Position numbers and translations under genes: made by a program. Below are positions 8,171-44,423 of a stretch of 64,000 bases of DNA, one piece after another (the first letter of the stretch is position 1; each line of letters begins with the position of its first letter). The notes under the pieces are model-generated. The model worked only from the letters and a program-made list of their open reading frames with translations. It searched no databases and had not been told where the DNA came from. The DNA comes from a virus (Duplodnaviria; Heunggongvirae; Uroviricota; Caudoviricetes), in IMG/VR virus record IMGVR_UViG_3300037418_003165, positions 1 to 64,000 of that record. One strand, given 5' to 3'.

Positions 8171-9106
8171 GTGCCAGGAACATTCATCACGTTCATCGTG
8201 CTCATCAGCATCGGCCTGGTGGTGACGGCCATAGGCAGGGTCGCGCGCAAGGCTGCCGGCGACGATGACGAGCTGGCCTTCGGCGGGGCAGTCGGCACGG
8301 GAATCGGCCTGGCGGCATGCTGCCTCGCGCTGCTGTTCCTCGCGCTGTCGTGCTTCGACGTCGTCTCGACCCGCAATGTCGGCGTAGTCACGAGCTTCGG
8401 CCGCCCGGTCGCGACCCGGTCCAACGGTCTCGTGGAGCACTGGCCATGGCAGCAGATGTCGGAGCTTTCGGGAACCATCGAAACCGACAGTCAGACCGGC
8501 GGATTCGACGACAAGAACAAATGCACCGGCGGCACTACGGTCCGGCTCGGCAACAACGCCGCCGCCTGCGTGGACAACACCATCCGGTGGCGCATCGTCC
8601 CCGCAGCCGGCGACGAACTGTTCCGCGATTACCGCGACGACGCGAACATCCGCGACAGCCTCGTCACGCGCGAACTGAACGCCACCCTGAACGGCTACTT
8701 CGCCAGCTACAACCCCCTCAGCCCCGACGCGAACGCTGCGGCGCCGAGCCTCGCTGACATCTCCGATCGCGTCACGAAGGCATTGCAGGAAAACCCGAAG
8801 GTCAAGGGCCGCATCGATATCCAGAACGTGATCATCCCCATCGTGCACTTCGACACGAAGACGCAGGGACAGATCGACGCGTACCAGCAGCAGATCGCGC
8901 AGACCCGTGTCGCGCAGGAGTCCGAGAAGACCGCGGCCGCGCAGGCTGAGGCCAACCGCATCCTGGCCGACAGCATCAGCAAGGACCCCGGCGTGATCGC
9001 GTGGCGGTGCCTGGATCTCATCGACCGCGGCAAGCAATTGCAGCCCGGATTCCAGTGCCCCGGCAGCGGCGTCGCCGCACCTCAGATCATCGTCCCCGCC
9101 AAGTAG
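8171..9106 (+). CDS. SPFH/band-7 (prohibitin/HflK-like) membrane protein.
   Basis: N-terminal TM helix followed by RNVGVVTSFGRPV, typical of an SPFH domain start. Coiled-coil C-terminus. RBS AAAGAGG. Confidence 0.65.
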   Translation: MPGTFITFIVLISIGLVVTAIGRVARKAAGDDDELAFGGAVGTGIGLAACCLALLFLALSCFDVVSTRNVGVVTSFGRPVATRSNGLVEHWPWQQMSELSGTIETDSQTGGFDDKNKCTGGTTVRLGNNAAACVDNTIRWRIVPAAGDELFRDYRDDANIRDSLVTRELNATLNGYFASYNPLSPDANAAAPSLADISDRVTKALQENPKVKGRIDIQNVIIPIVHFDTKTQGQIDAYQQQIAQTRVAQESEKTAAAQAEANRILADSISKDPGVIAWRCLDLIDRGKQLQPGFQCPGSGVAAPQIIVPAK

Positions 9107-11706: not shown

Positions 11707-12200
11707 GCGCATTCGAAATTTTCTGGTGCATCTCGATCATCGTGCTGGCCGTAGCATTCGGCTGGGCAGTCGCACCGCTGTTCCGCCGCCGGGCAACCCG
11801 ACCGGCGCCAGGGTGGCAATCCGGCGGCGCGCCGTTCGATCCGATCGCTGAACTGAGGAAACGGCTGCCCTGCGCGCCCGCGGACCACTGGTGGGAATTG
11901 ACCATCGACCGCGACGAGAACTACCGCATGATTCTCCGCGTCGCGCTGCGGACCTACCACCGAGCCACGATCGAGGACATAGCTACCCGCGGGTCACGGC
12001 TTGTCGCATACCGCCAAGTCGACCTTACTGCCCACGCCAGCAACGAATTTCGAGCACTGAACCACATGCTGCCGACGCTCATGCCTTACGTGGCGTTCGA
12101 CGAGATCGTCACCAAGAACACGGCCTGGGCGCAACAACAGGTCGAAATCTACGGAATGCCCGGCACAGACGGGCCACTACACCACGAGGTGATCATATGA
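11703..12200 (+). CDS. Hypothetical membrane protein.
   Basis: ATGA overlap. TM at FWCISIIVLAVAFGWAVAPLF. Confidence 0.5.
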   Translation: MSAFEIFWCISIIVLAVAFGWAVAPLFRRRATRPAPGWQSGGAPFDPIAELRKRLPCAPADHWWELTIDRDENYRMILRVALRTYHRATIEDIATRGSRLVAYRQVDLTAHASNEFRALNHMLPTLMPYVAFDEIVTKNTAWAQQQVEIYGMPGTDGPLHHEVII

Positions 12201-12556
12201 AGAATGAAGTCCCGCAAAACGAATCGCGGGACGAGATGGCCGAGCGGGCGCTGCGTTGGTGTCGCGCAAATGACGGCGGCCGCCTCGGGGTCTGGTGGCC
12301 CTGCGGTTCCCATCCGAGGGACCCGGCTGACACGAGCCAACCGATCATGGCTGTGATGTGGGACGGCGGCGGCACTGGTGAACTCGGCGTGTTCTACGAC
12401 AAGGCCGGTGCCGATGACATGGAAACCATCTGCGACATCTTCAATTGGGCCCTCGACCAGCTTGTCCCCAGCGTGCGGGGATACTACGGCGACCGGACAT
12501 ATCTCCTCCCGAAGTCTCCGCCGGCGGCCGCCGAGGCGGAGGAGGACCGCCCGTGA
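12197..12556 (+). CDS. Hypothetical protein.
   Basis: ATGA overlap. MKNEVPQNESRDE... Confidence 0.5.
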   Translation: MKNEVPQNESRDEMAERALRWCRANDGGRLGVWWPCGSHPRDPADTSQPIMAVMWDGGGTGELGVFYDKAGADDMETICDIFNWALDQLVPSVRGYYGDRTYLLPKSPPAAAEAEEDRP

Positions 12557-13257
12557 CGAAACTCCTTCTCGAAGGTATCGCTGGCTCGACAGCCTATGGT
12601 TTGAGCCGCCCGGGCAGCGATCTCGACTACATCGGCATCTACGTCGAACCCACCCGAAACTTTCTCGGACTCCACCCGCCCTCTCGTGAACGCGCCACCC
12701 GGAAAGGCCGCGGGGGAGCAGACGGCACCTTCCACGAGATCGGCAAGTCGATGACCCTCATGCTCGCCTGCAACCCACACGCGCTCGAAATCCTCTGGCT
12801 CGACAACTACACCCACTCAACCGGTTTCGGCTGGGAACTCATCGCCCTGCGAGACTGCTTCCTGTCAGCTCAAAACGTGCGTGACCGATACTTCGAGTAC
12901 GCCCGTGGGCAACTCAAGCGACTGGTCAATTCGGGCCGCTTCGCCGGATCGCTCGAAACGCGACGAGAGAAGCACGCCCGCCACACCATGCGGATCCTCT
13001 GGCAAGGCTACGAGCTATACACCACCGGCACTCTGCCGATCCGCGTACCTGCGCCTGAGCTCCTGTTCGAGTTCGGGCAGCGGGTTGCGCACGACCCAGA
13101 TGCCCGAGCAGCCGAAACGCTGATCGCCGAATACGAAGCGAAGTTCGACGACGCACGCACAGTCCTTCCGGCTGAGCCCACCGAAGCACCACTCGAAGAC
13201 CTTCTGCAGCGCATCCGTCGCGCTCACCTCGAGATCGCGGACGGAGGCCGATCATGA
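12553..13257 (+). CDS. Pol-beta-superfamily nucleotidyltransferase.
   Basis: GSTAYGLSRPGSDLDYIG matches the GS...SDxD nucleotidyltransferase motif. GTGA overlap start. Confidence 0.6.
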   Translation: MTKLLLEGIAGSTAYGLSRPGSDLDYIGIYVEPTRNFLGLHPPSRERATRKGRGGADGTFHEIGKSMTLMLACNPHALEILWLDNYTHSTGFGWELIALRDCFLSAQNVRDRYFEYARGQLKRLVNSGRFAGSLETRREKHARHTMRILWQGYELYTTGTLPIRVPAPELLFEFGQRVAHDPDARAAETLIAEYEAKFDDARTVLPAEPTEAPLEDLLQRIRRAHLEIADGGRS

Positions 13258-13856
13258 GCGAAATCTGGTACGTGTCAGACCTGCATATCGATCATCGCTT
13301 CGTGGCCGCCGAGCGGGGATTCGATTCGACGGCGGAGCATGACCGTGTCCTGGCCGAGAACTGGGACAGCAGAGTCGCACGGGACGACATAGTGGAGGTA
13401 CTCGGCGACATCTCGGTCGGCGGCAAGCGTGCGGAACTGAATGCATTGCAGTGGGTTTCGCGGCGCCCAGGCCGCAAGCACCTGAAAGCAGGCAACCATG
13501 ACGGCTGCCACGCAATGCGCAGCGAAGCGGCCAAGTGGCAGCGGATTTACCTCGACACCGCATTCGAATCAGTCCAGCAGTACGGGATCCGCAAGATCGC
13601 TGATCAACGGGTATTGCTATGTCACTTCCCCTTCCAGGGCAGCGATTACGGCGACCACACGCCAGAGAACCGCTTCGAGGAGTGGCGGCTCCCGTGCATC
13701 GGCGAGAACGCCGACCGATGGCTGCTGCACGGGCACACCCACAGCCCGATCAAGGTCCGCGGCCGCCAACTCCACATCGGCCTCGACGCCCACGACCTGA
13801 CCCCGGTGCCGCAGACATGGGTGCAACACATGATTGCCAACGATCCACCGTTCTGA
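13254..13856 (+). CDS. Calcineurin-like metallophosphoesterase.
   Basis: DLHIDH, GNHD and GHTH metal-binding motifs. ATGA overlap. Confidence 0.7.
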   Translation: MSEIWYVSDLHIDHRFVAAERGFDSTAEHDRVLAENWDSRVARDDIVEVLGDISVGGKRAELNALQWVSRRPGRKHLKAGNHDGCHAMRSEAAKWQRIYLDTAFESVQQYGIRKIADQRVLLCHFPFQGSDYGDHTPENRFEEWRLPCIGENADRWLLHGHTHSPIKVRGRQLHIGLDAHDLTPVPQTWVQHMIANDPPF

Positions 13857-14266
13857 TGGACCTTCTCCTCTACCTGCCAGCGATCATCGGCGGCATCGCC
13901 ACCTACGTTGCCGTCGGCCGGTTTCATCCTGACCGGCGACGCGGCCCACGCCGCCCCCATCCCGCGCTCGAGCGGGCACTGATGGAGGAGATGAATAAGC
14001 AGCTCCACGCGCATGTGATCGAGCTGGACCGCTACCGCCGAGAACTCAGTACTTTCCGCAAAACATCTACCCCTCAACACATTCCGAAGTCGCAGCCTGC
14101 ACGGCTCGAAGAGTTCACCGCGTTCTGCGACTGCCCGAAATGCAAACGCCACGCCTGCCATCCGCTCCGCGTCGCCCCGAAGACCGACGGCGCCGAGCCG
14201 GCAACAGAGATAGTCCGCACCTGCATCGAACCAGAGTGTGGGCAGGAATGGAGACAACGACGATGA
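13856..14266 (+). CDS. Hypothetical membrane/Cys-rich protein.
   Basis: ATG shares a base with the upstream stop. N-terminal TM LLLYLPAIIGGIATYVAV. Confidence 0.45.
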   Translation: MDLLLYLPAIIGGIATYVAVGRFHPDRRRGPRRPHPALERALMEEMNKQLHAHVIELDRYRRELSTFRKTSTPQHIPKSQPARLEEFTAFCDCPKCKRHACHPLRVAPKTDGAEPATEIVRTCIEPECGQEWRQRR

Positions 14267-14312
14267 GCCGCATCTACTCCCACACCCCGGCTGCCAGCGG
14301 CGAGGTCCATGC

Positions 14313-14561
14313 ATGAACTGGAGCTGCACACCCAGCGGAGGGCGCAGGGAGACCGTCGAATTCACCGTCGTAGACGTGAACCCGGCGATGTTCCGTGTGC
14401 TGTTCAACATCCCGGACGGCTTCCCGCTCTGGTACAGGACGCCGCAGCTCGCGCTGCCGGTCGGGCCACTCGGCCGGATCCAGGCACGTCTGGAAGCCGA
14501 ACTCGGCTTCTCGCTGCGCGTGACGCCGCTGGGCATCGGAGCACAACCATGTGGGTTCTGA
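14313..14561 (+). CDS. Hypothetical protein.
   Basis: ATG 14313 with GGAGG upstream. In frame with listed ORF 14238..14561. Confidence 0.4.
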   Translation: MNWSCTPSGGRRETVEFTVVDVNPAMFRVLFNIPDGFPLWYRTPQLALPVGPLGRIQARLEAELGFSLRVTPLGIGAQPCGF

Positions 14562-14701
14562 TCTTCGGCGTCGCCACCGCGAACGCCGCGTATGACGCTG
14601 TCGAGCACCATGTTCCATTCGACTGGGTATGGGCAACGTTTTGGGGGATTCTCACGCTGCTCGCGCTGATCAACCATCTTCGCGAAGGGAAGAAGCCATG
14701 A
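14549..14701 (+). CDS. Small membrane protein (50 aa).
   Basis: MWVLIFGVATANAAY...WATFWGILTLLALINHL. Overlaps the upstream stop. Confidence 0.4.
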   Translation: MWVLIFGVATANAAYDAVEHHVPFDWVWATFWGILTLLALINHLREGKKP

Positions 14702-14770
14702 CCAACCCGACCTCTACTCGAAACGATGAGCGGCTATCCCGGTGTCGCCGGGTGGCACGGATAGCCGACA

Positions 14771-15310
14771 GTGGCTGAGCAAAGACGTCACATCGGCTGG
14801 TGCAGGCCGTGCCGCAAACAACTGTTCACCAGCCGTAAGGCGGCCAAACGCGCCTGCCGCCGCCGACACCCGGCAGAACAACTCACCGCCTACCGGTGCC
14901 CTGTCGATGACGGCTGGCACGGCGGGCATCTTCCGCGCAAGGTGCGAGAGGGCAGGGTGGCGCGCTCGCAGTACTACGAGCAGCGGCCACGAAGCCGACG
15001 AAAGGACGCGACCACAGTGGACGACCGGAGCTGGCAGCCGAAGGATGCGATCGACCAGATCCTCTACGAGGTGTGGTGCAGCGCAATGGATGCCGCCTAC
15101 AGCAAGGACTTTCGGAAACGAACGCACGAGTGCTCGGTGTGCCACGAACCGCACTCGATCCTCGACGAGGACAAATACCTCGAGTATCAGAGCACAGTGC
15201 TGAACTATCGACGGCAGGCACTCGATGCCCACATTGCGCAGCAAAGCCGCCCGGTAGCTGTCCAATCTGCCAAGGAATCTTCGCCAGAGCTGCGACACGA
15301 CGTGGAATAG
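14771..15310 (+). CDS. Hypothetical Cys-rich basic protein.
   Basis: Listed 179-aa ORF with a GTG start. Confidence 0.45.
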   Translation: MAEQRRHIGWCRPCRKQLFTSRKAAKRACRRRHPAEQLTAYRCPVDDGWHGGHLPRKVREGRVARSQYYEQRPRSRRKDATTVDDRSWQPKDAIDQILYEVWCSAMDAAYSKDFRKRTHECSVCHEPHSILDEDKYLEYQSTVLNYRRQALDAHIAQQSRPVAVQSAKESSPELRHDVE

Positions 15311-15468
15311 CCTTGGCGTAGGTAGGCAATATGGCTACAGTGGCGATTACTTCCGGTGCGCTAGCTGGGGCTACTTCATCAGAATGCGGATCTGACACCG
15401 AAATGCCTCGGCGACCTTTTTTCTCGGGAGTACAAACTTCAGAGTGTGGTTGATCGCCCGGTGCGATA

Positions 15469-15577
15469 GGTGAGAGTTACTTCGCCCTCAAGCGGGGAAC
15501 GCGGGTTCGAATCCCGTCGCAGCGCTGAGCGTGCTGTGTGGTCGAGCGGCCTATGACACCTACAGTCACTTTCACCA
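15469..15577 (+). ncRNA. Y-RNA-like (YrlA-type) ncRNA candidate 1, carrying a permuted tRNA-like domain.
   Basis: T-arm gcggg-ttcgaat-cccgt (15501-15517). 3' acceptor-like cgcagcg (15518-24) pairs with tgctgtg (15532-38) across a 7-nt loop. D-arm gtcg-agcggccta-tgac (15541-57). A 13-bp closing stem forms between 15469-81 and 15565-77. Lies immediately upstream of rsr. Confidence 0.55.
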
Positions 15578-15607
15578 GGGCTTGTTTTTCTCGGGCGATC
15601 GTCGACC

Positions 15608-15771
15608 CCTTCGGGGGCGGAGCCTGGTGCGCTGGCGTGGGTTACTTCCACTGTTAATGGAGAGGTTGCAGGTTCGATTCCTGTCACACCCCCCGTAAGG
15701 ATCGGGTGTGTAGCTCAATTGGCAGAGCGCTATCACCTTCGCCGAATCTTTCTCAGGCCCCGCTCCCGAAA
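15608..15771 (+). ncRNA. Y-RNA-like (YrlA-type) ncRNA candidate 2, with a permuted tRNA-Asn-like domain.
   Basis: Hairpin ttcca-ctGTTaa-tggag. T-arm gcagg-ttcgatt-cctgt (15668-84). 3' acceptor cacaccc (15685-91) pairs perfectly with gggtgtg (15704-10) across a 12-nt loop. D-arm gctc-aattggc-agagc. A 17-bp closing stem forms between 15610-26 (ttcgggggcggagcctg) and 15753-69 (caggccccgctcccgaa). Confidence 0.6.
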
Positions 15772-15812
15772 CTCTGAATGCTTGTGCCCCCGCCATCCAC
15801 AGAAGGGCAGGC

Positions 15813-17375
15813 ATGAGCAAGTTCAACGGCAGCGCCGCGCGGGCAGTCGCCGCGGGCCCGATCCAAACCGGTTTCGCCCGCGACGCGAAATCCGAACTCT
15901 TCCTCCTCGCCATCACCAACATGGTCGGGGAGAAGACCTTCTACGAGACCGCGATCGAACGCGATTCCCGATTTGCCGGGCTCGTCCGCACCATCGCCCT
16001 CAACGACCTCGACTGGCTCACTCGCTTCGGGCGCTGGCTGCGCACCGAAGTGAACATGCGCAGCGTGTCTCTCGTGCTCGCCGCAGAAGCCGCCAAAGCC
16101 ACCAACGACGCTGGACAGCACGGTGGCCGCGAACTCGTCAACGCCGTGCTCCAGCGCGCCGACGAACCGGGGGAGATGGTCGCCTACTGGCTGTCGCACT
16201 ACGGGCGCCGACTCCCGAAACCCGTCAAGCGAGGCATAGCCGACGCCGCGGCCCGGCTCTACAACGAACGCTCAACCCTCAAGTGGGACAGCGCCGGCCA
16301 CGGCATCCGCTTCGCCGACGTCATCCAGCTCACCCACCCCGACCCCCAGGCCCTCTGGCAGTCGGAGCTGTTCAAATACCTCGTCGCCCGCCGCTGGGGC
16401 AACGACGTCGAGCCCTCGCCCCGCCTCCAGATGCTGCACGCCAACGCCCACATGCGCACCCACAGCCCCGAGCACATCAAGACGCTGGCGACGAGCGGCC
16501 ACCTGGCGGAACTGCTGCGTCTGGCCGGAATGACCTGGGAAGCGATCCCCGTCCTCGTGCAGGGACCGTGGACTGCCGAACTGTGGTCGGCGGCGATCCC
16601 GACCATGGGTTACATGGCGCTCACGCGCAACCTTCGCAATTTCGACCAGGCCCACGTCAGCGACGATATCGCCGAGCAGGTCGCTGCACGCCTCAGCGAC
16701 CCCCAGCAGGTCGCACGGTCGGGGATGCTGCCAATGCAGTTCCTGTCCGCCTACCGGGCCGCGCCCTCACTGCGCTGGGCGTACCCGCTGGAAAAGGCCC
16801 TCGATCTATCGCTGGCCAACATCCCGCAGCTCCGCGGCCGCACGCTGGTGCTGGTCGACACCTCCTCCTCGATGGATGCCGGCTTCTCCAAGGACGGCAC
16901 CCTCCGGCGCTGGGACGCGGCCGCACTCTTCGGAATCGGCCTCGCCGCCCGCTGCGAGTCAGCCGACCTCGTGTCGTTCTCCAGTACTGCCCAGTACTGG
17001 GGGCAGCCCCACAACGCCCACACCCGCGAATTCACCACCACCGCAGGCGAATCCCTACTCAAAGCCCTCGACCGGTGGAAGCAGGGCGGATGGTTCCTCG
17101 GTGGCGGCACCGCCACCGCGGCCGCGGTGCGGCGCCACTTCAACGCCCACGACCGCGTAGTGATCCTCACCGACGAGCAGGCCCAGCACGACGGCCAGGA
17201 AGTCGGCCAGGCGCTCCCGAAGCAGGTGCCGCTCTACACCTGGAACCTCGCCGGCTACAAGCGCGGCCACGCCGCCGGCGGCCCGAACCGGCACACCTTC
17301 GGAGGCCTCACCGACAAGGCCTTCACGATGATCCCGCTCCTCGAGCGCGGCCGCGACTGCGATTGGCCCTTCTAA
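15813..17375 (+). CDS. rsr: Ro60/Rsr ortholog (TROVE domain plus C-terminal vWA domain).
   Basis: 520 aa. RBS GAAGGGCAGG. MIDAS motif LVLVDTSSSM. The overall TROVE-vWA architecture is typical of Ro60. Confidence 0.75.
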   Translation: MSKFNGSAARAVAAGPIQTGFARDAKSELFLLAITNMVGEKTFYETAIERDSRFAGLVRTIALNDLDWLTRFGRWLRTEVNMRSVSLVLAAEAAKATNDAGQHGGRELVNAVLQRADEPGEMVAYWLSHYGRRLPKPVKRGIADAAARLYNERSTLKWDSAGHGIRFADVIQLTHPDPQALWQSELFKYLVARRWGNDVEPSPRLQMLHANAHMRTHSPEHIKTLATSGHLAELLRLAGMTWEAIPVLVQGPWTAELWSAAIPTMGYMALTRNLRNFDQAHVSDDIAEQVAARLSDPQQVARSGMLPMQFLSAYRAAPSLRWAYPLEKALDLSLANIPQLRGRTLVLVDTSSSMDAGFSKDGTLRRWDAAALFGIGLAARCESADLVSFSSTAQYWGQPHNAHTREFTTTAGESLLKALDRWKQGGWFLGGGTATAAAVRRHFNAHDRVVILTDEQAQHDGQEVGQALPKQVPLYTWNLAGYKRGHAAGGPNRHTFGGLTDKAFTMIPLLERGRDCDWPF

Positions 17376-18553
17376 TGCCGATGACGCAGATCAGCCCCAA
17401 ATTGCTGTCGTGGGCCGTTGAGATCGACGACAACACGATCGAACAGGCGCACCAGACCGCGAGCATGCCGTTCGTGGCCCCGCACGTCGCGCTGATGCCC
17501 GACGCGCACAGTGGGCTCGGCGCCGCGGTGGGAACCGTCATCCCCACCGACGGCGCTGTGATCCCAGCCGCGGTCGGCGTGGACATCGGCTGCGGTATGG
17601 GTGCGATCGAGACTCGCTTCACCGCAGCCGATATCGACGGCCGCGACCTGGGCCAGCTGCGCGCAGCCATCGAGGCCGCGATCCCGCTGAGCCCCGGCTT
17701 CTACAACACCGCCATCACCCGCGACCACACCGCCGAACGGATCGCCGAGCTCGAAGGACTCGCCGCGCGCAACAGCGTCGACCTCACGCATTCTCCGAAG
17801 TGGCGCGAGCAGCTCGGCTCGCTTGGCGGCGGTAACCACTTCATCGAGCTGTGCTTGGACGAACGCCAGCACGTGTGGCTGTTCCTTCACTCCGGAAGCC
17901 GGGGCGTCGGCAACAAGATCGCCCAACGTCACATCAAGATCGCCCAGCAGCTGTGCAAGCGGTGGTGGATCGACCTGCCCAGCCCAGACCTCGCTTACCT
18001 CGTCGAGGGCACACACGAGTTCGCCTTCTACATCAAGGAACTCGCGTGGGCGCAGAAATTCGCCGCGCTCAACCGCGCGGACATGCTCGACCGGTTCGCC
18101 GCCGAATTCGCGCACTGGATCGGCGCCGACGACCACGGCGAAGTCGACCGGATCATCTCCCACCACAACTACACCCGCCGCGAGAAGCACATGGGCCGAG
18201 ACGTCTGGTTGACCCGGAAGGGCGCCGTCGATGCACACGCCGGCGTGCGGTCGATGATTCCAGGCAGCATGGGCACCGCCTCCTACGTCGTGGAAGGCAA
18301 GGGCTGCGTCCCGGCGCTCTGCTCGGCACCGCACGGCGCCGGCCGACGCATGTCGCGCACGGAGGCGAAAAAGCGGTTCACCGCCGACGACCTCTCCGCC
18401 CGCATGCAGGGAATCGAGTACCGGCCGGGCGAGGAATGGGTGGACGAGATCCCGGACGCGTACAAGCCGATCGACGAAGTCATGGCCGCCGCAGAGCCAC
18501 TGGTCACGGTGCTGCACCAATTGCGGCAGGTCATGAACGTCAAGGGAACGTAG
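17375..18553 (+). CDS. rtcB: RtcB RNA 3'-phosphate/5'-OH ligase.
   Basis: ATG overlaps the rsr stop. His/Cys metal-site motifs PDAHSGLG, GCGMG, GNHFIEL, HSGSRG and HHNY are typical of RtcB. Confidence 0.8.
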   Translation: MPMTQISPKLLSWAVEIDDNTIEQAHQTASMPFVAPHVALMPDAHSGLGAAVGTVIPTDGAVIPAAVGVDIGCGMGAIETRFTAADIDGRDLGQLRAAIEAAIPLSPGFYNTAITRDHTAERIAELEGLAARNSVDLTHSPKWREQLGSLGGGNHFIELCLDERQHVWLFLHSGSRGVGNKIAQRHIKIAQQLCKRWWIDLPSPDLAYLVEGTHEFAFYIKELAWAQKFAALNRADMLDRFAAEFAHWIGADDHGEVDRIISHHNYTRREKHMGRDVWLTRKGAVDAHAGVRSMIPGSMGTASYVVEGKGCVPALCSAPHGAGRRMSRTEAKKRFTADDLSARMQGIEYRPGEEWVDEIPDAYKPIDEVMAAAEPLVTVLHQLRQVMNVKGT

Positions 18554-18621
18554 GGGAGCGATGGCATACGCCGAGTCCTGCTGTGGCGCATTCCGAACCG
18601 CGGACGAGAGGTAACACCGAC

Positions 18622-18930
18622 ATGGACGTCACACCTGTCCCGTCGGGTGCCCTGGCCAGGATGAGGAAGTCTGGCGCGAAACCGTCGCCCGGTCTGCTGG
18701 CGGCGATCGACGCCGCGGCGCGGCGCCGCAACCGGCGACAGCTGCCCGCGCGCTGGCACCCGAAAGGCCTGCGCGAACACCTCTGCCAGCAAGCGACATG
18801 CGCGCCCGACAACGAAACCAAGGCCGCCATCAATGCCCTGATCGCCGTGCTCGACCGCCACCGCCCGCTCGGGCCGGACGGCAAGCACGGCACCCAGCAC
18901 ACCCCGACCTGTGGATGCGAGGACACATGA
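18622..18930 (+). CDS. Hypothetical protein.
   Basis: RBS GAGAGG. MDVTPVPSG... Confidence 0.45.
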   Translation: MDVTPVPSGALARMRKSGAKPSPGLLAAIDAAARRRNRRQLPARWHPKGLREHLCQQATCAPDNETKAAINALIAVLDRHRPLGPDGKHGTQHTPTCGCEDT

Positions 18931-19577
18931 CCAACCCCGACAAGACCCTCATCGCCGTGCTGCTCGACCGCTCCGGATCGATGCAATCGGTGAAGGACGA
19001 CACCGAGGGCGGCTTCAACCAGTTCATCGCCGACCAGCGCGAAAAGCCCGGCACCGCAACAGTTACCCTCGCCCAGTTCGACCACGAGTACGAACTCGTC
19101 TACTCCAACGTCCCGCTGGCGAAGGTCCCGCCGCTGGAACTTTCGCCGCGGGGGTCGACCGCACTGCTCGACGGAATCGGGAAGCTCACCGTCGATATCG
19201 GCGCCGACCTCCGCGCGCTGCCCGAAGACCAGCGACCGTCCACGGTGATCGTCGTCGTGCTCACCGACGGCCACGAGAACGCATCGAAGGAATGGTCACG
19301 CGATGCAGTCCAGCGACTGATCACCCAGCAACAGGACCAGTGGAACTGGAACTACATCTTCCTCGGCGCCACCCTCGACGCGGTCGAAACCGGCGTCGAC
19401 CTCGGCGTCATGCGCGGCCACTCGATGCACTTCTCACCCAAGGCGGTCGGGGCCACCTTCGACGCACTGGCCGACGCCACCACGACCATGCGAGGCGGCG
19501 CCGCGTTCACCGGCTTCGGCGACGCCCAGCGCGCGGCCGCCGCCGGCGCACCCGCGGTCGGCACGCCAGACGCATGA
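18927..19577 (+). CDS. von Willebrand factor A (vWA) domain protein.
   Basis: MIDAS motifs DRSGSM and TDGHEN. ATGA overlap. Confidence 0.65.
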   Translation: MTNPDKTLIAVLLDRSGSMQSVKDDTEGGFNQFIADQREKPGTATVTLAQFDHEYELVYSNVPLAKVPPLELSPRGSTALLDGIGKLTVDIGADLRALPEDQRPSTVIVVVLTDGHENASKEWSRDAVQRLITQQQDQWNWNYIFLGATLDAVETGVDLGVMRGHSMHFSPKAVGATFDALADATTTMRGGAAFTGFGDAQRAAAAGAPAVGTPDA

Positions 19578-20722
19578 TGCCTGCGGCCGCCCCGGACGGC
19601 GCGGCGCCGGCCCGCGACGTCGTCGACGAGATCGACCAGCTCGTCGACGAGCAGATGCGGCGGGAACGCTCCGGCTGGGACCACAGCATCAACCAGGCAC
19701 GATGTCCGCATCCCTGGTGCAAAGAACCTTGGCACGGCCTCGCCATCACCACCCGAATGCGTCAGATGCGGGCGAAATGGCGGTCCGCCGTCGAACTCGA
19801 TGAGGAGGCCGGCGGCCGCGTCACCGACGCGGTCGTCGCCGAGCTGAACACATACCGGTACGACGAAGACGACTCACCGATCTGCTGCCCCGGCTCGAAC
19901 TTCACCGGCGAGTTCACACCCCCGGCAGCCCCGCCACCGCGCAACCTGCCCGCGGCTACCGTCTTTACCCGGCCCGCCGGAAGCTCCGGCCCTTGGCAGC
20001 CGGTAGGCCACCTCGCTCCCGAAGGCATCCGCCTGCGCCCGAATCGCGAACGGAATTGGCGCCCGCTGCATATTACCGACCCGCGTCAGCTCGCCCCTGA
20101 GCCGCAGTGGTGGCGGTGCGACGACCTCACGGCGATCATGCCCGAGATCGTCATCCCCGCATCGGCGCAAGACGTCTGCGTGGGCACCCTGGACGGCCGC
20201 ACCTGGATGGACGTCCGCGACCGCCAGCCACCGTCGGCCGGCTCTTGGTACCTACGCGACGAGACCGCAATCCTGGACCTGGCCATCGTCGAACAACTCG
20301 AACAACTGACAGTTGTCGGCACCGCCACGGGCACGACAGGGGTAGGAGCGTCCGTCGAGGTCTGGGACGGACTGGTGGCTCACGCTTTCGCGCGACAAGC
20401 CGAAGCCCGGTTCGAGCGCTTGCGCCACGCGTGGATCGACCCCAGGAACCTGCAGATGCGCCAAATCGGCCAAGACCACGGGATGATCCGGATGGAAGTC
20501 CGCTGGCGGCAACCACATTCACTTCAGGCAGAATTCCGCGGCGGCCGCGCCCACAACCGGCCCGTGCGGACTCTGGACCGCCTCGTCGACGAGATCGAAA
20601 CGCCGATCCGGGTTCCGCTCTCCGTCCACGACTTGGGCTTCAACATCGAGCGCTATCGGCGAGCCGGCTTCAACACCATCACAGGCAACTGGGTGTACCG
20701 CCCCGAAACGGAGCAGTCGTGA
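19574..20722 (+). CDS. Hypothetical protein (382 aa).
   Basis: ATGA overlap. GC3-biased frame. Confidence 0.55.
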   Translation: MMPAAAPDGAAPARDVVDEIDQLVDEQMRRERSGWDHSINQARCPHPWCKEPWHGLAITTRMRQMRAKWRSAVELDEEAGGRVTDAVVAELNTYRYDEDDSPICCPGSNFTGEFTPPAAPPPRNLPAATVFTRPAGSSGPWQPVGHLAPEGIRLRPNRERNWRPLHITDPRQLAPEPQWWRCDDLTAIMPEIVIPASAQDVCVGTLDGRTWMDVRDRQPPSAGSWYLRDETAILDLAIVEQLEQLTVVGTATGTTGVGASVEVWDGLVAHAFARQAEARFERLRHAWIDPRNLQMRQIGQDHGMIRMEVRWRQPHSLQAEFRGGRAHNRPVRTLDRLVDEIETPIRVPLSVHDLGFNIERYRRAGFNTITGNWVYRPETEQS

Positions 20723-21165
20723 GTGATTCGCCCGAGACTTACCCGAAATCGCCGGACCTCGGATGTTGCATGGCCTCGCTGCTCGGCCAGGCCTGCACCT
20801 GCTGGCGCGACGTCATCGCACCGCACCCGGCCCGGGACGTCCAGGCCGGCCCGTCACCGGTCCGCGAAGGTCGTTGCGGAGACTGCGCGTACCGGCACGA
20901 CTCCCCGGAGAGAACCGCGCTCGAGGGCGACACGCTCCCGTATAACCGCGACGTCACTTTCTACTGTCACGATGGGATGCCGAAAACAATTGCGCACGTG
21001 CATCCTTCGGGCGTGGTCGAGCTGCCCATGGGAGACGACTACCAACCGGTGATTCGTGTCGGTAGGGCGTGGCAGGCTGACGGCAGACCCGCCATCGTGT
21101 GCGCGGGCTGGGCGGCCGAAGACCGCCGATACCAGGCGACCAGGGGTGGAGGCCGAAATGGCTGA
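20719..21165 (+). CDS. Hypothetical Cys-rich protein.
   Basis: GTGA overlap. Confidence 0.45.
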   Translation: MSDSPETYPKSPDLGCCMASLLGQACTCWRDVIAPHPARDVQAGPSPVREGRCGDCAYRHDSPERTALEGDTLPYNRDVTFYCHDGMPKTIAHVHPSGVVELPMGDDYQPVIRVGRAWQADGRPAIVCAGWAAEDRRYQATRGGGRNG

Positions 21166-21370
21166 AGAGATCGACGAGGATGTCCCCACCACGGTGGCGA
21201 TCAAATGCCGCCGCTGCCCCGGCTGGCTCACCTCCGAAGAATCCAAACGGAAAGGCGTCGGCCCGACCTGTGAGCGGAAAGAGGCGGCCGAGAAGCGCGC
21301 CGCGGCTGTGGCCGGGCGTGAGCTCACCCTGTTCGAGATCCGCGAGGCCGAGGCCAAACCGGCTGCATGA
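21158..21370 (+). CDS. Small Cys-rich protein.
   Basis: MAEEIDEDVPTTVAIKCRRCPGW... Confidence 0.45.
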   Translation: MAEEIDEDVPTTVAIKCRRCPGWLTSEESKRKGVGPTCERKEAAEKRAAAVAGRELTLFEIREAEAKPAA

Positions 21371-21489
21371 ACCCGGGAAGACCCAGGAGATATGCCGAAA
21401 GCGTTGTCGTCCTGGGCTCTTCGCGTATCTGAGCAACGGATTTCCGCAATCGCGCGACGCGACTCCTGCAACACGCCAGGATCGATGGC

Positions 21490-21906
21490 ATGAGCGCAGA
21501 AGACCCCGATGACGAGCAGCTACAGCAGCACTTCGCCGACATCGACGAACACAGACTCGCCCAGCAACACGCCAGCATGCAATTCGCATTCCCCCCAGCC
21601 ACCGTCGAACCGATCATCGACATCGACCTGTACCTCCACGACGACACCGGCGTCGAATCGTGGACAGCCGAATGGGGGCTCCTGGGCGAAGAATGCGCCG
21701 GCCAAACGACCAGCGATGATTTCGCCGAAATCCTGGATGAGGTAGCGGCGTACGCAGACGTATGCGTTGCCGGGCGCGACTTTATCCGGCTGGAATGGAC
21801 CTTCCACGGGGAAGACGGCGCAGCCGTCCCCGCCCCGCCGATCCTCGTCGAACATCTCGGTGTGACCCTCCCCGACCGCTATCCGGTGCGGCCTGAGCGT
21901 GGCTAG
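21490..21906 (+). CDS. Acidic hypothetical protein.
   Basis: Listed 138-aa ORF with no overlap to its neighbours. Confidence 0.5.
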   Translation: MSAEDPDDEQLQQHFADIDEHRLAQQHASMQFAFPPATVEPIIDIDLYLHDDTGVESWTAEWGLLGEECAGQTTSDDFAEILDEVAAYADVCVAGRDFIRLEWTFHGEDGAAVPAPPILVEHLGVTLPDRYPVRPERG

Positions 21907-22231: not shown

Positions 22232-23296
22232 GTGAACAACGACAACGCCGGCGCGTTCGACGAGGACAATCCGCCATCCGAGGAACTCGCGACAGCACCG
22301 TCGAGCGAATTCATCGTCTACCGCACTGAAGACGGGCGCGTCGAGGTCCAACTGCGAACGGTCGACAACACCGTCTGGCTGAGCCAGCGGCAGATGGCCG
22401 ACCTGTTCGACAAGGACGTTCGCACCATCAACGACCACCTCAAGCGGATCTACGAAGAGGGGGAGTGTGTGATGGAGGCAACTATCCGTAAATTCCGGAT
22501 AGTTCAATCCGAAGGCGAACGCATGGTCGAACGCGCCGTCGACCACTACAACCTGGACGCCGTGCTGGCGGTCGGATACCGCGTGCGGTCCGCCCGCGGC
22601 ACCCAGTTCCGGCGCTGGGCCAGCACCGTGCTGCGGGAGTACCTCGTCAAGGGCTTCGCCATGAACGACGCACGGCTGAAGGATCCGGTCGGCGCGGACT
22701 ACTTCGACGAACTCCTCGAGCGGATCCGCGACATCCGCGCGTCCGAAAAGCGCTTCTACGAGAAGGTCCGCGATGTGTTCTCGGCATCGAGCGCCGACTA
22801 CGACCCTAAGTCCAAGATCGCGACGACATTCTTCGCCACGATCCAGAACAAGCTGCTGTTCGCGGTGACCGGGCACACGGCCGCCGAGCTCGTGGTGAAG
22901 CGCTGCAACCACGAGCTGCCCAACATGGGCCTCACCAGCTGGAAGGGCGGCGTCGTCCGCAAGGGCGACGTCGGAATCGCGAAGAACTATCTCGATGAGA
23001 AGGAAGTGAAGCAGCTCAACCGCCTCACCACGCGGTTCCTCGACTTCGCCGAGGACCGCGCGGAGCGGCGCCAGCAGATGCTGATGGCCGACTGGGTGGC
23101 CCAGACCGATCGCTTCCTGGAATTCGACGAGCGCGGCATCCTCAAAGGTCCCGGGCGCGTGTCGGCCGACGAAGCGACCCGCGTGTCGTCCGAACGCTAC
23201 GCCCGATTCGACGAGCGCCGGCGCGAGCTGCAGGCGCAGGCCGCGGATGTCGCCGAACTTGAAGCGATCCAGGCGGAAATCGAGGGGCGCGAGTAG
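22232..23296 (+). CDS. RhuM-family protein.
   Basis: YRTEDGRVEVQL...VWLSQRQMADLF...HYNLDAVLAVGYRVRSARGTQFRRWA...YFDELLERIRDIRASEKRFY closely matches RhuM consensus blocks I recall. A long intergenic region lies upstream. Confidence 0.7.
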   Translation: MNNDNAGAFDEDNPPSEELATAPSSEFIVYRTEDGRVEVQLRTVDNTVWLSQRQMADLFDKDVRTINDHLKRIYEEGECVMEATIRKFRIVQSEGERMVERAVDHYNLDAVLAVGYRVRSARGTQFRRWASTVLREYLVKGFAMNDARLKDPVGADYFDELLERIRDIRASEKRFYEKVRDVFSASSADYDPKSKIATTFFATIQNKLLFAVTGHTAAELVVKRCNHELPNMGLTSWKGGVVRKGDVGIAKNYLDEKEVKQLNRLTTRFLDFAEDRAERRQQMLMADWVAQTDRFLEFDERGILKGPGRVSADEATRVSSERYARFDERRRELQAQAADVAELEAIQAEIEGRE

Positions 23297-32260: not shown

Positions 32261-33040
32261 ATGCCGCAAGATTCCAGACCTCTGAGATTCACCAGCGCCG
32301 CCGACGCGCTCACCGGTGACCGCGTGATCTGCGGCGAAGCCCGCGACATCATGGCCCGGCTGCCGTCCGGATCATTCGATGCCCTGATCACCGACCCGCC
32401 CTACTGCTCCGGCGGCACCACGACCAGCGAACGCACCACCCGCAGCGCGGTCGAGAAATACGTCTCCTCCGACTCGGTGAGCGGCAAGGCCATGCCCGAC
32501 TTCCCGGACCAGCGCGACCAGCGCGCATTCACCCTCTGGTCGTCGTTCTGGCTGACCGACGCCCTACGCCTCGTCCGCCCCGGCGGCCAGGCGCTCGTTT
32601 TCACCGACTGGCGGCAGCTACCTGCATTGAGCGACGCGCTGCAGGTCGCCGGGTGGCGCTGGCGCGGAATCGTAGTGTGGCGCAAGCCCGCCGCCCGCCC
32701 GCAGCCCGGCTTCAAGAACGAATCGGAATACATCCTGTGGGCGTCCAACGGGCAGCTGGACGCCGACCACAAGCCGCCATGCCTCCCTGGCGTCTACAGC
32801 TACTCCGCGCCGAAAGGCCGCAAGCGCCAGCACATCACGGCCAAGCCGGTCGAGCTGATGCGCGACCTCGTGCGCACCGTCCAGCCCGACGGCCTGATCC
32901 TGGACCCGTTCGCCGGCTCCGGCACCACCGGCGTCGCAGCGCGCGCCGAAGGCCGGCGGTTCCTGTGCATCGAAGGCACACCGGAATACAGCCAGATATC
33001 GGCCGTGCGACTCGCCGATCCCGACTCCGCCGCCGCGTAG
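32261..33040 (+). CDS. DNA methyltransferase (N6-adenine/N4-cytosine, beta-class).
   Basis: DPPY motif (ITDPPYCSGG) precedes the FxGxG motif (DPFAGSGTT). Confidence 0.75.
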   Translation: MPQDSRPLRFTSAADALTGDRVICGEARDIMARLPSGSFDALITDPPYCSGGTTTSERTTRSAVEKYVSSDSVSGKAMPDFPDQRDQRAFTLWSSFWLTDALRLVRPGGQALVFTDWRQLPALSDALQVAGWRWRGIVVWRKPAARPQPGFKNESEYILWASNGQLDADHKPPCLPGVYSYSAPKGRKRQHITAKPVELMRDLVRTVQPDGLILDPFAGSGTTGVAARAEGRRFLCIEGTPEYSQISAVRLADPDSAAA

Positions 33041-42735: not shown

Positions 42736-43281
42736 GTGGTGGACATCAGCAGCGACCGCCGCGGCATCGGTGGCCACCAGTCGGCGCGCGCCGGTTCGAA
42801 TGTGTGGCTGACGCCCTTGCGCCTCATCCAGGCACTGGGACCGTTCGACCTCGACCCGTGCTCGCTTCAGCACCGCCCATGGGACACAGCCCGCCATCAC
42901 ATCGCACCACCCGATGACGGCCTCACCGCTCCGTGGTGGGGGCGCGTATGGCTCAACCCGCCATATAGCGATGTCGCTCGCTGGATCGCGCGACTGGCCG
43001 ACCACGGCACCGGCACCGGAATCGTGTTCGCGCGCACCGAGACACGGTGGTTTCACGAGTCCATCTGGTCCCGCGCGAGCGCGCTCCTATTCCCTGCAGG
43101 GCGCATCACCTTCTGCCTGCCAGACGGGGCGGAGCCACAGAGCAACTCGGGAGCTCCGAGCGTGCTGGTCGCCTACGGCCAAGGCGACGCAGATCTACTC
43201 CAGCAGCAAACCGCGCTGCCGGGCGCATTCATCCGCCTGACGAATGGAGAACAGGATGGTCGACCGCTCAGGCGGCGTTGA
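42736..43281 (+). CDS. Dam-family DNA N6-adenine methyltransferase.
   Basis: WLTPLRL...WLNPPYS (NPPY catalytic motif). GTG start next to GGAGG. Confidence 0.65.
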   Translation: MVDISSDRRGIGGHQSARAGSNVWLTPLRLIQALGPFDLDPCSLQHRPWDTARHHIAPPDDGLTAPWWGRVWLNPPYSDVARWIARLADHGTGTGIVFARTETRWFHESIWSRASALLFPAGRITFCLPDGAEPQSNSGAPSVLVAYGQGDADLLQQQTALPGAFIRLTNGEQDGRPLRRR

Positions 43282-44351: not shown

Positions 44352-44423
44352 TCCCGGTTGGTGTAGTCGGCAGCACAGCGGACTTTGGTTCCGCGAGTCC
44401 AGGTTCGAGCCCTGGGCCGGGAG
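44352..44423 (+). tRNA. tRNA-Gln (anticodon TTG).
   Basis: Manual cloverleaf. Acceptor tcccggt/gccggga. D-arm gtgt-agtcggca-gcac. Anticodon arm gcgga-ctTTGgt-tccgc. Variable loop gagt. T-arm ccagg-ttcgagc-cctgg. Discriminator g. No encoded CCA. Confidence 0.7.

Follow-up and report, generated by a model that had tools for sequence, protein, structure and literature searches.

The 64,000-nucleotide (nt) stretch of DNA analyzed here, hereafter the window, probably carries a phage-encoded cassette in which a Ro60-Y RNA ribonucleoprotein is joined to RNA-repair enzymes. Its Ro60-like, RtcB, and vWA genes and its two tRNA-like RNAs are all on the + strand, where an earlier note on this DNA had placed them, and the predicted products of the cassette suggest a role in RNA repair or counter-defence. 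Published examples exist of phage Ro60 proteins accompanied by Y RNAs and of RtcB and RlaP in phages; the unusual part is the direct coupling of Ro to RtcB, which is rare in viruses.

The window is viral. Terminase, portal, major capsid, and tape-measure genes occupy 46.9-61.7 kb, and the carrier is a siphovirus-type actinophage, its contig at least 90 kb long, from a phage of Nocardia-like actinobacteria; it may exist as a prophage. A near-DNA search against catalogued phages matched only RtcB (~73% identity), indicating a phage without a close catalogued relative. It is very unlikely that the window has captured an operon of a bacterial chromosome in place of a phage-borne cassette: close Ro homologues accompanied by Y RNAs do sit in Nocardia, Streptomyces, and Micromonospora chromosomes, one of them among housekeeping neighbours, but the terminase, portal, capsid, and tape-measure genes lie on the cassette's strand, the genes flanking the cassette match phage families, and identical Ro and vWA proteins occur on contigs of 38 and 90.5 kb. 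A tRNA-Gln at 44352 is the sole Rfam match in the window at gathering threshold, and a promoter and terminator scan of positions 12000-21500 returned zero + strand sites, with totals not above those of shuffles.

Three Y RNAs and their family

The 502-nt gap 5′ of the Ro gene holds three Y RNAs, set back 48-470 nt from the Ro start and on its strand, inside the 4 kb around Ro that is taken as typical of YrlA-type RNAs. The two tRNA-like candidates proposed in the earlier note are real, but its count falls one short, as a third, short RNA precedes them. Y RNA 1 (15448-15603, + strand) is YrlA-like, scores 90.3 bits with covariance model R1, and has a minimum-energy fold that fits the family architecture, with a putative Ro-binding motif at 15457-15470, V hairpin at 15480-15497, T arm at 15501-15517, acceptor-like hairpin at 15518-15538, D arm at 15539-15558, and 3′ strand at 15581-15597. 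The likewise YrlA-like Y RNA 2 (15614-15765, + strand; 115.9 bits; fold z-score of -3.3) has its putative Ro-binding motif at 15622-15635 and an anticodon-arm-like V hairpin at 15646-15662 with the loop CUGUUAA, followed after a 5-nt linker by the T arm (15668-15684), an acceptor-like hairpin (15685-15710), the D arm (15711-15729), and the 3′ strand (15745-15759).

The short RNA (15343-15436, + strand) is YrlB-like and lacks a tRNA-like domain: 25 nt replace the 80-nt tRNA-like insert of model R1, which it matches at 33.4 bits (E = 4.8e-8, run with filters off). Its minimum-energy fold consists of a basal stem, an internal loop with GGUGCG opposite UUUUUUCUC, and an upper stem, and similar matches of ~80 nt are found 5′ of the long copies in many relatives. 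A fourth R1 match, at 60512-60564, falls inside the tape-measure gene (E = 0.06) and was taken as chance.

The likeness to the Rfam YrlA family that the earlier note had anticipated is present only in part. Y RNA 2 gives a partial match spanning the T, AS, and D elements (36.1 bits, E = 3.6e-6) and Y RNA 1 a weak one (16 bits), and the RF02553 gathering score of 69 bits is reached by neither long RNA of the window and in 0 of 12 related loci. The long Y RNAs have the published YrlA architecture (PMC4201824), including closure by a 5′/3′ stem, as judged from their folds, the Rfam alignment of T, AS, and D elements, and covariation.

Relatives were collected by an RNA-only motif scan of IMG/VR in which proteins were ignored, yielding 119 stretches; together with 11 reached through the Ro protein, these make 130 viral loci. 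A Ro ortholog is present in 115 of the 130, typically directly downstream of the RNA and on the same strand. With the family covariance model, 236 copies are recovered from 97 sources, where they form arrays of 2 to 8. Across 146 distinct sequences, the Y-RNA fold has 95.8% of its cells paired, against 70% in shuffles and at most 48% in slid controls, and its covariation score is 0.63, against 0.165 and at most 0.12, respectively. Changes on both sides occur in 29 of its 34 pairs.

Some of these elements have been labeled as tRNAs. ARAGORN reports tRNA-Asn(gtt) at 15625-15694 and labels 44 of the 146 family members tRNAs, and GenBank labels equivalent elements in phages VanLee and LuckySocke tRNA-Arg and tRNA-Ser. 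Even so, it is barely credible that the elements 5′ of Ro are ordinary phage tRNA genes and not Y RNAs. Segment 15625-15694 reaches 25.5 bits with Rfam tRNA (RF00005; gathering score of 29) and has acceptor-stem mismatches, the annotated "tRNAs" of VanLee and LuckySocke also fall below the Rfam tRNA threshold, and tRNA-type acceptor pairing across the family is 37.6% in every register, which is the level of shuffles, whereas the Y-RNA fold is almost fully paired and covaries strongly. The ARAGORN tRNA-Asn was rejected as a false positive on the Rfam score and the acceptor pairing. In practical terms, such Y RNAs slip under Rfam thresholds, and some carry tRNA labels in GenBank phage records.

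In Y RNA 2 and about half of the family, the V arm appears to be a faithful mimic of an anticodon arm: its 5-bp stem carries a C-U-NNN-A-A loop and is separated from the T arm by a 5-nt variable loop. The exact geometry (a 5-bp stem with a 7-nt loop, 4-5 nt away from the T stem) occurs in 74 of the 146 distinct members, against 2.7 in shuffles, and the loop signature is C32 (86%), U33 (96%), A37 (79%), and A38 (96%). These features, and the CUGUUAA loop in the window, raise the possibility that the long Y RNAs serve as decoys for, or competitively inhibit, host anticodon nucleases or other tRNA-targeting defences, with RtcB repairing the rest, as YrlA has been proposed to inhibit anticodon nuclease competitively in Salmonella (PMC7790460). 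This explanation is improbable: about half of the family, Y RNA 1 of the window included, lacks the geometry, the signature may be a mere relic of descent from tRNA genes, and no nuclease target is known. Just as doubtful is its more specific form, in which the RNA approximates a complete circularly permuted tRNA on a Ro-binding stem and acts as phage bait for these nucleases; Ro60 would then stabilize or recycle the bait, and the co-translated RtcB, with RlaP and the phosphoesterase, would repair what is cut. If true, this would also give direct evidence, at the sequence level, that YrlA arose from dimeric tRNA transcripts, as has been proposed.

Protein genes of the cassette and their neighbourhood

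Downstream of the Y RNAs, positions 15813-17375 (+ strand) encode a 520-amino-acid (aa) Ro60/Rsr-type protein with TROVE and vWA parts, as the earlier note had proposed; the TROVE part is a HEAT-repeat ring, and the vWA domain is C-terminal and has a MIDAS. The TROVE profile (Pfam PF05731) matches at 45.2 bits (E = 1e-11; cut-off of 23), VWA_2 remains below its cut-off of 27 (20.9 bits, E = 5.7e-4), and PHROG 850, "RNA-binding protein," matches residues 34-513 (E = 2.6e-46). The MIDAS is complete (D349-x-S351-x-S353, T433, and D454, within the motifs VDTSSSM at 348, GGGTAT at 430, and ILTDEQ at 451), with all five residues invariant across 36 homologues, and PF05731 is present in all 120 homologues among the matches listed. 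The AlphaFold model (pLDDT of 83.4) has as its 13 best PDB matches only Ro60 structures, including 9KOP (E = 7.5e-19), 2NVO (TM of 0.73/0.76), and human 9NEN (TM of 0.71/0.73), after which come vWA domains only, with E values of at least 8e-4. By sequence, the best solved relative is Ro60 of Thermus phage phiLo (9KOP/9L5Y, E = 5.7e-27). The NCBIfam Rsr equivalog (NF041674) gives 33.2 bits against a cut-off of 900; with the Rfam YrlA scores also below their cut-off, the Ro and RNAs of the window are divergent members of their families, and the protein is best described as Ro-like, from a divergent actinobacterial/phage clade that by its profile score would lack Rsr equivalog status.

RtcB directly follows Ro, again in agreement with the earlier note. 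This predicted 3′-phosphate/5′-OH RNA ligase (17375-18553, + strand, 392 aa) matches the full Pfam profile PF01139 (positions 1-426; 372 bits, E = 5.8e-111) and PHROG 1075 (E = 1.5e-151), and its metal ligands and guanylylated His align with D95, C98, H203, H234, H329, and H404 of the Pyrococcus enzyme PhRtcB, indicating an intact ligase. Its start codon shares one base with the stop codon of Ro (TAATG), pointing to translational coupling of the two genes and arguing for their co-expression.

This adjacency is not conserved. RtcB adjoins Ro in 0 of the 115 viral Ro loci (in 62 of which the sequence continues for at least 1.5 kb beyond a full-length Ro), Ro lies within 6 kb of RtcB in 1 of 80 viral RtcB loci, and of 11 actinobacterial genome loci only 1 has RtcB near Ro, while in catalogued Mycobacterium and Rhodococcus phages RtcB stands alone. 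A conserved place for RtcB beside Ro was rejected on these counts, and the juxtaposition could be a recent mosaic accident and not a functional unit.

Two further genes lie 2 kb upstream of the Ro block on the same strand and were missed in the limits that the earlier note had drawn for the module. The first (12553-13257, + strand, 234 aa, its gene call taken from an identical Logan contig) encodes an RlaP-family Pol-beta nucleotidyltransferase, predicted to add nucleotides to RNA 3′ ends (Pfam PF10127, 72.8 bits against a cut-off of 23, E = 4.5e-20; PHROG 388, nucleotidyltransferase); RtcB is 4.1 kb downstream of it on the same strand. The second (13254-13856, + strand), whose start overlaps the RlaP stop (ATGA), encodes a calcineurin-like metallophosphoesterase (Pfam Metallophos, 29.2 bits against a cut-off of 21.5, E = 1.5e-6; PHROG 547, phosphoesterase, E = 6e-44). 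In each of the four closest viral loci (three distinct contigs), Y RNAs, Ro, RlaP, and phosphoesterase stand in a row, and on this ground the pair is counted as functionally part of the Ro neighbourhood. In these loci the Ro proteins are 65-68% identical to that of the window, and the RlaP homologues are 66-70% identical. One of the four adds Thg1 and one a faint RNA-ligase match; Thg1 and RLIG1-like genes, known from relatives' loci, are absent from the window.

The same neighbourhoods bear on a rival of lesser though real probability, in which the Ro-Y RNA particle works in decay, recruiting host PNPase in a RYPER-like assembly that degrades structured host or defence RNAs, and RtcB is an independent, tRNA-repairing neighbour. 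In vitro, Ro60 of phiLo, the closest solved relative, binds its two Y-like RNAs, encoded upstream of it, together with host PNPase in ternary complexes (PMC12135203), and both the near absence of Ro-RtcB pairs in related viral loci and the solitary RtcB genes of catalogued phages agree with this explanation. It sits less well with the overlapping Ro stop and RtcB start and with the repeated placement of RlaP and phosphoesterase after Ro in the closest viral relatives. A repair function is in turn harder to square with PNPase, the known partner of Ro-Y RNA particles, as this enzyme breaks RNA down and does not repair it.

RtcB is followed by an open frame of 104 aa (18616-18930, + strand) with no assigned function and no Pfam match, whose stop overlaps the start of a stand-alone YegL/TerY-like vWA protein (ACATGA; 18927-19577, + strand, 216 aa). 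The latter has a DxSxS...T...D MIDAS motif (D15-x-S17-x-S19), and the Pfam profiles remain below threshold (E = 0.003-0.0075; VWA_2, 18.5 against 27 bits; VWA, 16.9 against 23.8 bits). Among the best 120 of its 2123 homologues, most of those named by NCBI are "vWA domain-containing protein" or YegL, and two homologues among the matches listed carry PF00092; its single-sequence AlphaFold model is too poor to be informative (pLDDT of 36), and a PDB sequence search gave no match. The earlier note had included "extra vWA proteins" in the module. Only one stand-alone vWA protein is there, and although the gene is real, a tie to Ro or RtcB was rejected: of 130 viral loci, only 1 has a homologue in the vicinity of Ro, and those in catalogued phages have unrelated contexts, one being annotated "DNA ligase."

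Proposed action during infection

Under the favoured interpretation, a Ro60-Y RNA cassette joined to repair enzymes, the block would be transcribed as one early unit, and the Y RNAs would be cut from the precursor, possibly by host tRNA-processing enzymes, as has been shown for YrlA of M. smegmatis (PMC4201824). Ro60 would bind each Y RNA through a bulged helix with GGUGCG(A/C)NGG as its 5′ strand and UUUCUCGGG as its 3′ strand, which would correspond to the GGUCCGA site of metazoans. The tRNA-like domains of the long Y RNAs would offer a tRNA elbow, and in Y RNA 2 an anticodon-like arm as well, to a host or phage tRNA-binding factor. RtcB would reseal host or phage tRNAs, or rRNA, cut to 2′,3′-cyclic-phosphate and 5′-OH ends by host toxins or abortive-infection nucleases, while 3′ ends that had been nibbled would be trimmed back or rebuilt by RlaP and the phosphoesterase. 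The Ro-Y RNA particle would pass damaged RNAs to repair or decay, or shield tRNA-like targets. Overall, the translation machinery would thereby stay functional in the infected cell.

Manipulation of host RNA surveillance or the countering of tRNA-cleaving defences, as the earlier note had suggested, is a published and reasonable idea (PMC7790460, PMC7824862), and RtcB, RlaP, and TROVE proteins have been counted among the RNA-repair equipment of phages (PMC7824862). RlaP extends the 3′ ends of damaged RNA by 1-2 nucleotides (PMC12776372), but it leaves a 3′-OH where RtcB needs a 3′-phosphate; this incompatibility, noted in the same paper, counts against a repair role. The conserved RlaP-phosphoesterase pair is a candidate for end-processing between the RlaP (3′-OH) and RtcB (3′-phosphate) steps.

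Relation to known systems

Bacterial Ro60 proteins and tRNA-like Y RNAs are frequently linked in genomes to RtcB, and the published Salmonella operon is silent unless induced through RtcR. The phage version, with Ro apparently coupled to RtcB and no RtcR- or RtcA-like gene in the cassette block, may lend itself better to study, and each infection presumably involves its expression. The parallel to Salmonella drawn in the earlier note holds: like rsr-yrlBA-rtcBA of Salmonella Typhimurium (Chen 2013/2014; Hughes 2020, PMC7790460), which is induced by cleaved tRNAs, the window combines a Ro60 ortholog, short and tRNA-like Y RNAs, and RtcB on one strand. Unlike that operon, the window has three RNAs, placed before Ro and not between rsr and rtcB; it lacks RtcA and RtcR/sigma-54 control and has RlaP and a phosphoesterase instead; its Ro is far below the NCBIfam Rsr equivalog cut-off; and its carrier is a phage.

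YrlA-like RNAs are reported in 254 bacteria and 22 phages (Chen 2014, PMC4201824), and, as far as Ro60 with Y RNA is concerned, the earlier note was right that mycobacteria and phages are known to have modules of this kind (PMC4201824, PMC12135203). Likened by description, the YrlAs of M. smegmatis, Gordonia, Streptosporangium, and phage ET08 (PMC4201824) share with the window a 5′ CGAA-type Ro-binding motif, YUAY, V hairpin, T arm, acceptor-like hairpin, and D arm, as well as a location immediately 5′ of Ro in the same orientation. The Ro-binding motif of the window reads GGUGCGAUAGG or GGUGCGCUGG, its Y RNA 3′ strand is UUUCUC(G/A)GG compared with GAUCUCGGG for the family, and its RNAs reach only 36 of the 69 bits required by the Rfam YrlA model.

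Thermus phage phiLo likewise has a phage Ro60 with Y-like RNAs, Yrl1 and Yrl2, directly upstream (PMC12135203; 9KOP, 9L5Y). By sequence and by fold, its Ro60 matches the window protein best, yet identity is only ~25%; RtcB is unmentioned in the text of that paper, and its available part describes the Yrl RNAs as stem-bulge-stem and does not mention a tRNA-like domain. For the remaining enzymes, RlaP is likewise associated with RNA ligase in the rtcB-rlaP-rtcA operons of Pseudomonas (PMC12776372), and TROVE, RtcB, and RlaP co-occur in some phages (PMC7824862). Those reports concern bacteria and jumbo phages, whereas the window belongs to a siphovirus-type actinophage in which RlaP has a metallophosphoesterase as its partner and its link is to Ro, not to RtcA.

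Ro60 and RtcB genes

The 520-amino-acid protein encoded at 15813-17375 (+ strand), which an earlier note had proposed as a TROVE+vWA Ro60 ortholog, is best called a Ro60-family member of a divergent actinobacterial/phage clade. Its Pfam TROVE score of 45 bits exceeds the cut-off of 23, whereas its VWA_2 match falls below threshold. PHROG 850 ("RNA-binding protein") spans it almost end to end, and among solved relatives, Thermus phage phiLo Ro60 (9KOP/9L5Y; E = 5.7e-27) ranks first, matched in two stretches (residues 21-514). All MIDAS residues are present and are invariant across 36 homologues. For an AlphaFold model built on the alignment of these homologues (pLDDT 83), 13 of the 13 top PDB matches are Ro60 structures (phiLo, D. 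radiodurans Rsr, Xenopus, and human; TM ~0.65-0.77); the next matches are isolated vWA domains, with E-values seven orders of magnitude worse. The protein falls far short of the NCBIfam Rsr equivalog (33 bits versus a cut-off of 900), and its clade is a big one: homologues at E <= 1e-10 number more than 6000.

The start codon of the next gene (17375-18553, + strand; 392 aa) overlaps the Ro stop codon (TAATG). Its product matches the whole Pfam RtcB profile (E = 5.8e-111) and, in alignment with Pyrococcus RtcB, retains the metal ligands and the guanylylated histidine, confirming the ligase read from the sequence alone. This adjacency is rare: RtcB adjoins Ro in none of 115 viral Ro loci, 62 of which have a full-length Ro followed by 1.5 kb or more of sequence; Ro lies within 6 kb of RtcB in 1 of 80 viral RtcB loci; and RtcB is near Ro, on the opposite strand, in 1 of 11 actinobacterial genome loci. 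Catalogued phages having the most similar RtcB carry it as a lone gene.

The 216-aa product of 18927-19577 (+ strand) is very probably a vWA protein, as judged from a sub-threshold Pfam VWA match, a clear DxSxS...T...D motif, and the names of its homologues, which among the best 120 of 2123 are mostly vWA-domain or YegL. Its proposed membership in the Ro/RtcB module is not supported. Among catalogued phages, 217 carry homologues, in settings that have nothing to do with Ro or RtcB, and just 1 of the 130 viral loci has one close to Ro; the protein is not counted in the module.

A Y RNA array upstream of Ro

The preceding ORF ends at 15310, and the 502 nt from there to Ro contain no plausible coding sequence. 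Regions 5' of 11 Ro relatives share a layout consisting of a 5' part CCCGGUGCG(A/C)AGG, then GGUUACUUC and a small hairpin, followed by a T arm (GGUUCGAAUCC), a variable hairpin, a D arm (GUAGCUCA..GGCAGAGC), and finally CUUGAUCUCGGG. Judged by sequence, this is the architecture of YrlA (Chen et al. 2014, PMC4201824), which has a 5' CGAA-type Ro-binding motif like metazoan GGUCCGA, a YUAY motif, V, T, AS, and D elements, and a 5'/3' stem that closes the RNA. An RNA-only pattern scan of IMG/VR returned 119 stretches; with 11 loci found through the Ro protein, a Ro ortholog is present in 115 of 130 viral loci, typically directly downstream on the same strand, and contig ends truncate most of the remainder.

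The Rfam YrlA search suggested by the earlier note yields partial matches, at 15661-15731 (36 bits, E = 3.6e-6), spanning the T arm, hairpin, and D arm exactly, and more weakly at 15493-15562, but both are below threshold. A covariance model made from 32 diverse copies recovers both of the tRNA-like RNAs noticed initially, as long Y RNAs at 15448-15603 (RNA 1; 90 bits) and 15614-15765 (RNA 2; 116 bits), and detects no other credible copy in the window. With filters off, it adds a short Y RNA at 15343-15436 (33 bits, E = 4.8e-8); all three are on the + strand. The short copy has 25 nt where the long ones have an 80-nt tRNA-like insert, and it folds as they do into a basal stem, internal loop, and upper stem. 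Short copies lie 5' of long ones in many relatives and resemble YrlB of Salmonella and M. smegmatis, which is also short.

The model finds 236 copies in 97 sources, in arrays of 2 to 8. Arrays of 6 to 8 tandem Y RNA-like elements, long and short, lie 5' of Ro in some viral loci (L113 2485-3391, L016 3296-3963, and L042 5978-8432), far more than the pair reported in Salmonella, M. smegmatis, or phiLo. Pairing and covariation were measured on 146 distinct best copies against shuffled and slid controls. In an alignment fitted to the model, and hence biased towards structure, 95.8% of cells are paired (70% when shuffled, at most 48% when slid), the covariation score is 0.63 (0.165 and at most 0.12, respectively), and both sides change in 29 of 34 pairs. 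Since covariation exceeds the controls and an unfitted MAFFT alignment has compensatory changes in 25 of the 34 pairs, the Y RNA fold is well supported.

The 3' strands of all three window copies (15417-15430, 15581-15597, and 15745-15759) read UUUCUC(G/A)GG versus a family consensus of GAUCUCGGG, which suggests a concerted change with the Ro protein of this phage. In the stretch from the last Y RNA to Ro, many relatives (e.g., L100, L105, and L057) conserve a hairpin, CCUCCCCUCC-ACGUG-AGGGG with U's after it; it looks like a terminator or attenuator and is absent from the window.

ARAGORN calls a tRNA-Asn(gtt) at 15625-15694, which was rejected, its Rfam tRNA score being below threshold; the program labels 44 of the 146 family members tRNAs. 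Pairing of a tRNA-type acceptor, between the 5' basal strand and the strand that follows the T arm, reaches only shuffle level (37.6%) in all registers. Gordonia phage VanLee and Streptomyces phage LuckySocke each have a GenBank tRNA, tRNA-Arg(tct) and tRNA-Ser(gct), respectively, just 5' of a gene annotated "Ro-like RNA binding protein." Both tRNAs lie inside Y RNA matches (L009 4697-4845 and L010 4763-4919), score below the Rfam tRNA threshold, and are probably misannotated Y RNAs.

The V hairpin has the exact geometry of an anticodon arm (5-bp stem, 7-nt loop, and 4 to 5 nt before the T stem) in 74 of 146 members, compared with 2.7 (maximum, 10) in shuffles. Its loop carries C32 (86%), U33 (96%), A37 (79%), and A38 (96%), with GCU (17) and GUU (13) the most frequent "anticodons." In RNA 2 (15646-15667 with linker), UUCCA-CUGUUAA-UGGAG is followed by AGGUU and the T arm; RNA 1 differs, its V hairpin having 6 bp in the stem and 6 nt in the loop and its D arm belonging to the long-D-loop type. 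Several tRNA-like D-arm types (GUAGCUCA..., GUGGUCGAGCGGCC..., and GUCGUCUAGCGGCC...) occur in the family alignment. The mimicry fits the proposed origin of YrlA from dimeric tRNA transcripts (bioRxiv 10.1101/312249) and may be a relic or may function as bait; the part of the literature covered contains no mention of it.

Gene neighborhood and probable host

RlaP (12553-13257, + strand; Pfam, 72.8 bits) is encoded 2 kb upstream, and its stop codon overlaps the start of a calcineurin-like metallophosphoesterase gene (13254-13856, + strand). The four most closely related viral loci, on three distinct contigs, have Ro proteins 65 to 68% identical to that of the window and share the order Y RNAs, Ro, zero or one gene, RlaP, phosphoesterase, and a homologue of window ORF 19574-20722, with RlaP and the phosphoesterase a conserved overlapping pair adjoining Ro (L228 7643-9617, L230 7602-8958, and L232 7653-8944). 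Compared with these loci, the interval from Ro to ORF 19574 in the window phage is occupied by RtcB, a 104-aa ORF, and the vWA gene, and the RlaP-phosphoesterase pair is moved upstream. One of these contigs encodes Thg1 (L230 2979-3680), and another has a faint RNA-ligase (RLIG1) match (L228 2637-3212). A Nocardia chromosomal locus keeps the Y RNAs and Ro among housekeeping genes.

The window is ~66% G+C, with almost all likely genes on the + strand, and strong PHROG matches identify a large terminase (46909-48555), portal (48574-50007), major capsid protein (51678-52499), and tape-measure protein (56423-61711). These genes and the high G+C content indicate a tailed phage or prophage with a high-G+C actinobacterial host. 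Among catalogued phages, there are no DNA-level relatives except over the RtcB stretch, which is ~73% identical to some Mycobacterium, Rhodococcus, and Gordonia phages. An identical Ro protein is encoded on a 38-kb Logan contig, and both an identical Ro and an identical vWA protein are encoded on a 90.5-kb JGI contig. Because the nearest named homologues among the matches listed are from Nocardia (63 to 65% identity for Ro and 71% for vWA), the host is probably Nocardia or a close relative.

Other products include a Band_7/SPFH protein (8171-9106), a DUF6011 protein (21056-21370), a RhuM-family protein (22232-23296; E = 1.6e-109), and an N6/N4 DNA methylase (32261-33040); between ~22 and 32 kb, GC skew is opposite and strands are mixed. 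A gene for a HIT-domain protein (43244-44044; Pfam HIT, E = 5.9e-17, and also DcpS_C) adjoins the sole genuine tRNA of the phage, tRNA-Gln(ttg) (44352-44423). HIT/aprataxin-type enzymes strip nucleotidyl caps off nucleic acid ends, and this one may be relevant to ligase side products.

Possible roles and relation to known systems

Ro60 grips a bulged helix of Y RNAs and admits RNA 3' ends to its cavity, and RtcB ligates 3'-phosphate or 2',3'-cyclic-phosphate ends to 5'-OH ends. The parts, their order and coupling, and the RNA fold are demonstrated; the module is best read as a phage-borne RNA surveillance and repair cassette, which during infection would protect the translation apparatus. RlaP extends damaged 3' ends of RNA by one or two nucleotides (PMC12776372), host ribotoxins are the presumed target countered by phage RNA-repair sets (PMC7824862), and in Salmonella, anticodon-loop cleavage triggers the rsr-yrlBA-rtcBA operon response, with YrlA suggested to be a nuclease inhibitor (PMC7790460). 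The main rival is that the Ro-Y RNA particle acts in decay with host PNPase while RtcB works independently, and the in vitro data on phiLo point to decay with PNPase (PMC12135203). For a surveillance and repair cassette, the ends are mismatched, RlaP leaving a 3'-OH and RtcB using a 3'-phosphate; the always-paired phosphoesterase might bridge the two.

Every component and the general idea are already published. Chen et al. (2014) reported that 254 bacteria and 22 phages have YrlA-like RNAs close to Ro, SEA-PHAGES records bear the names "Ro-like RNA binding protein" and "RtcB-like RNA ligase," and the structure of the phiLo Ro60-Yrl complex has been solved. Modestly new relative to these systems are the fusion of Ro and RtcB in one operon, rare in a virus; the Ro/RlaP/phosphoesterase linkage conserved in this phage clade; the array of three Y RNAs; the anticodon-arm mimic within Y RNAs; and a Y RNA subfamily that Rfam thresholds miss and tRNA finders mislabel.
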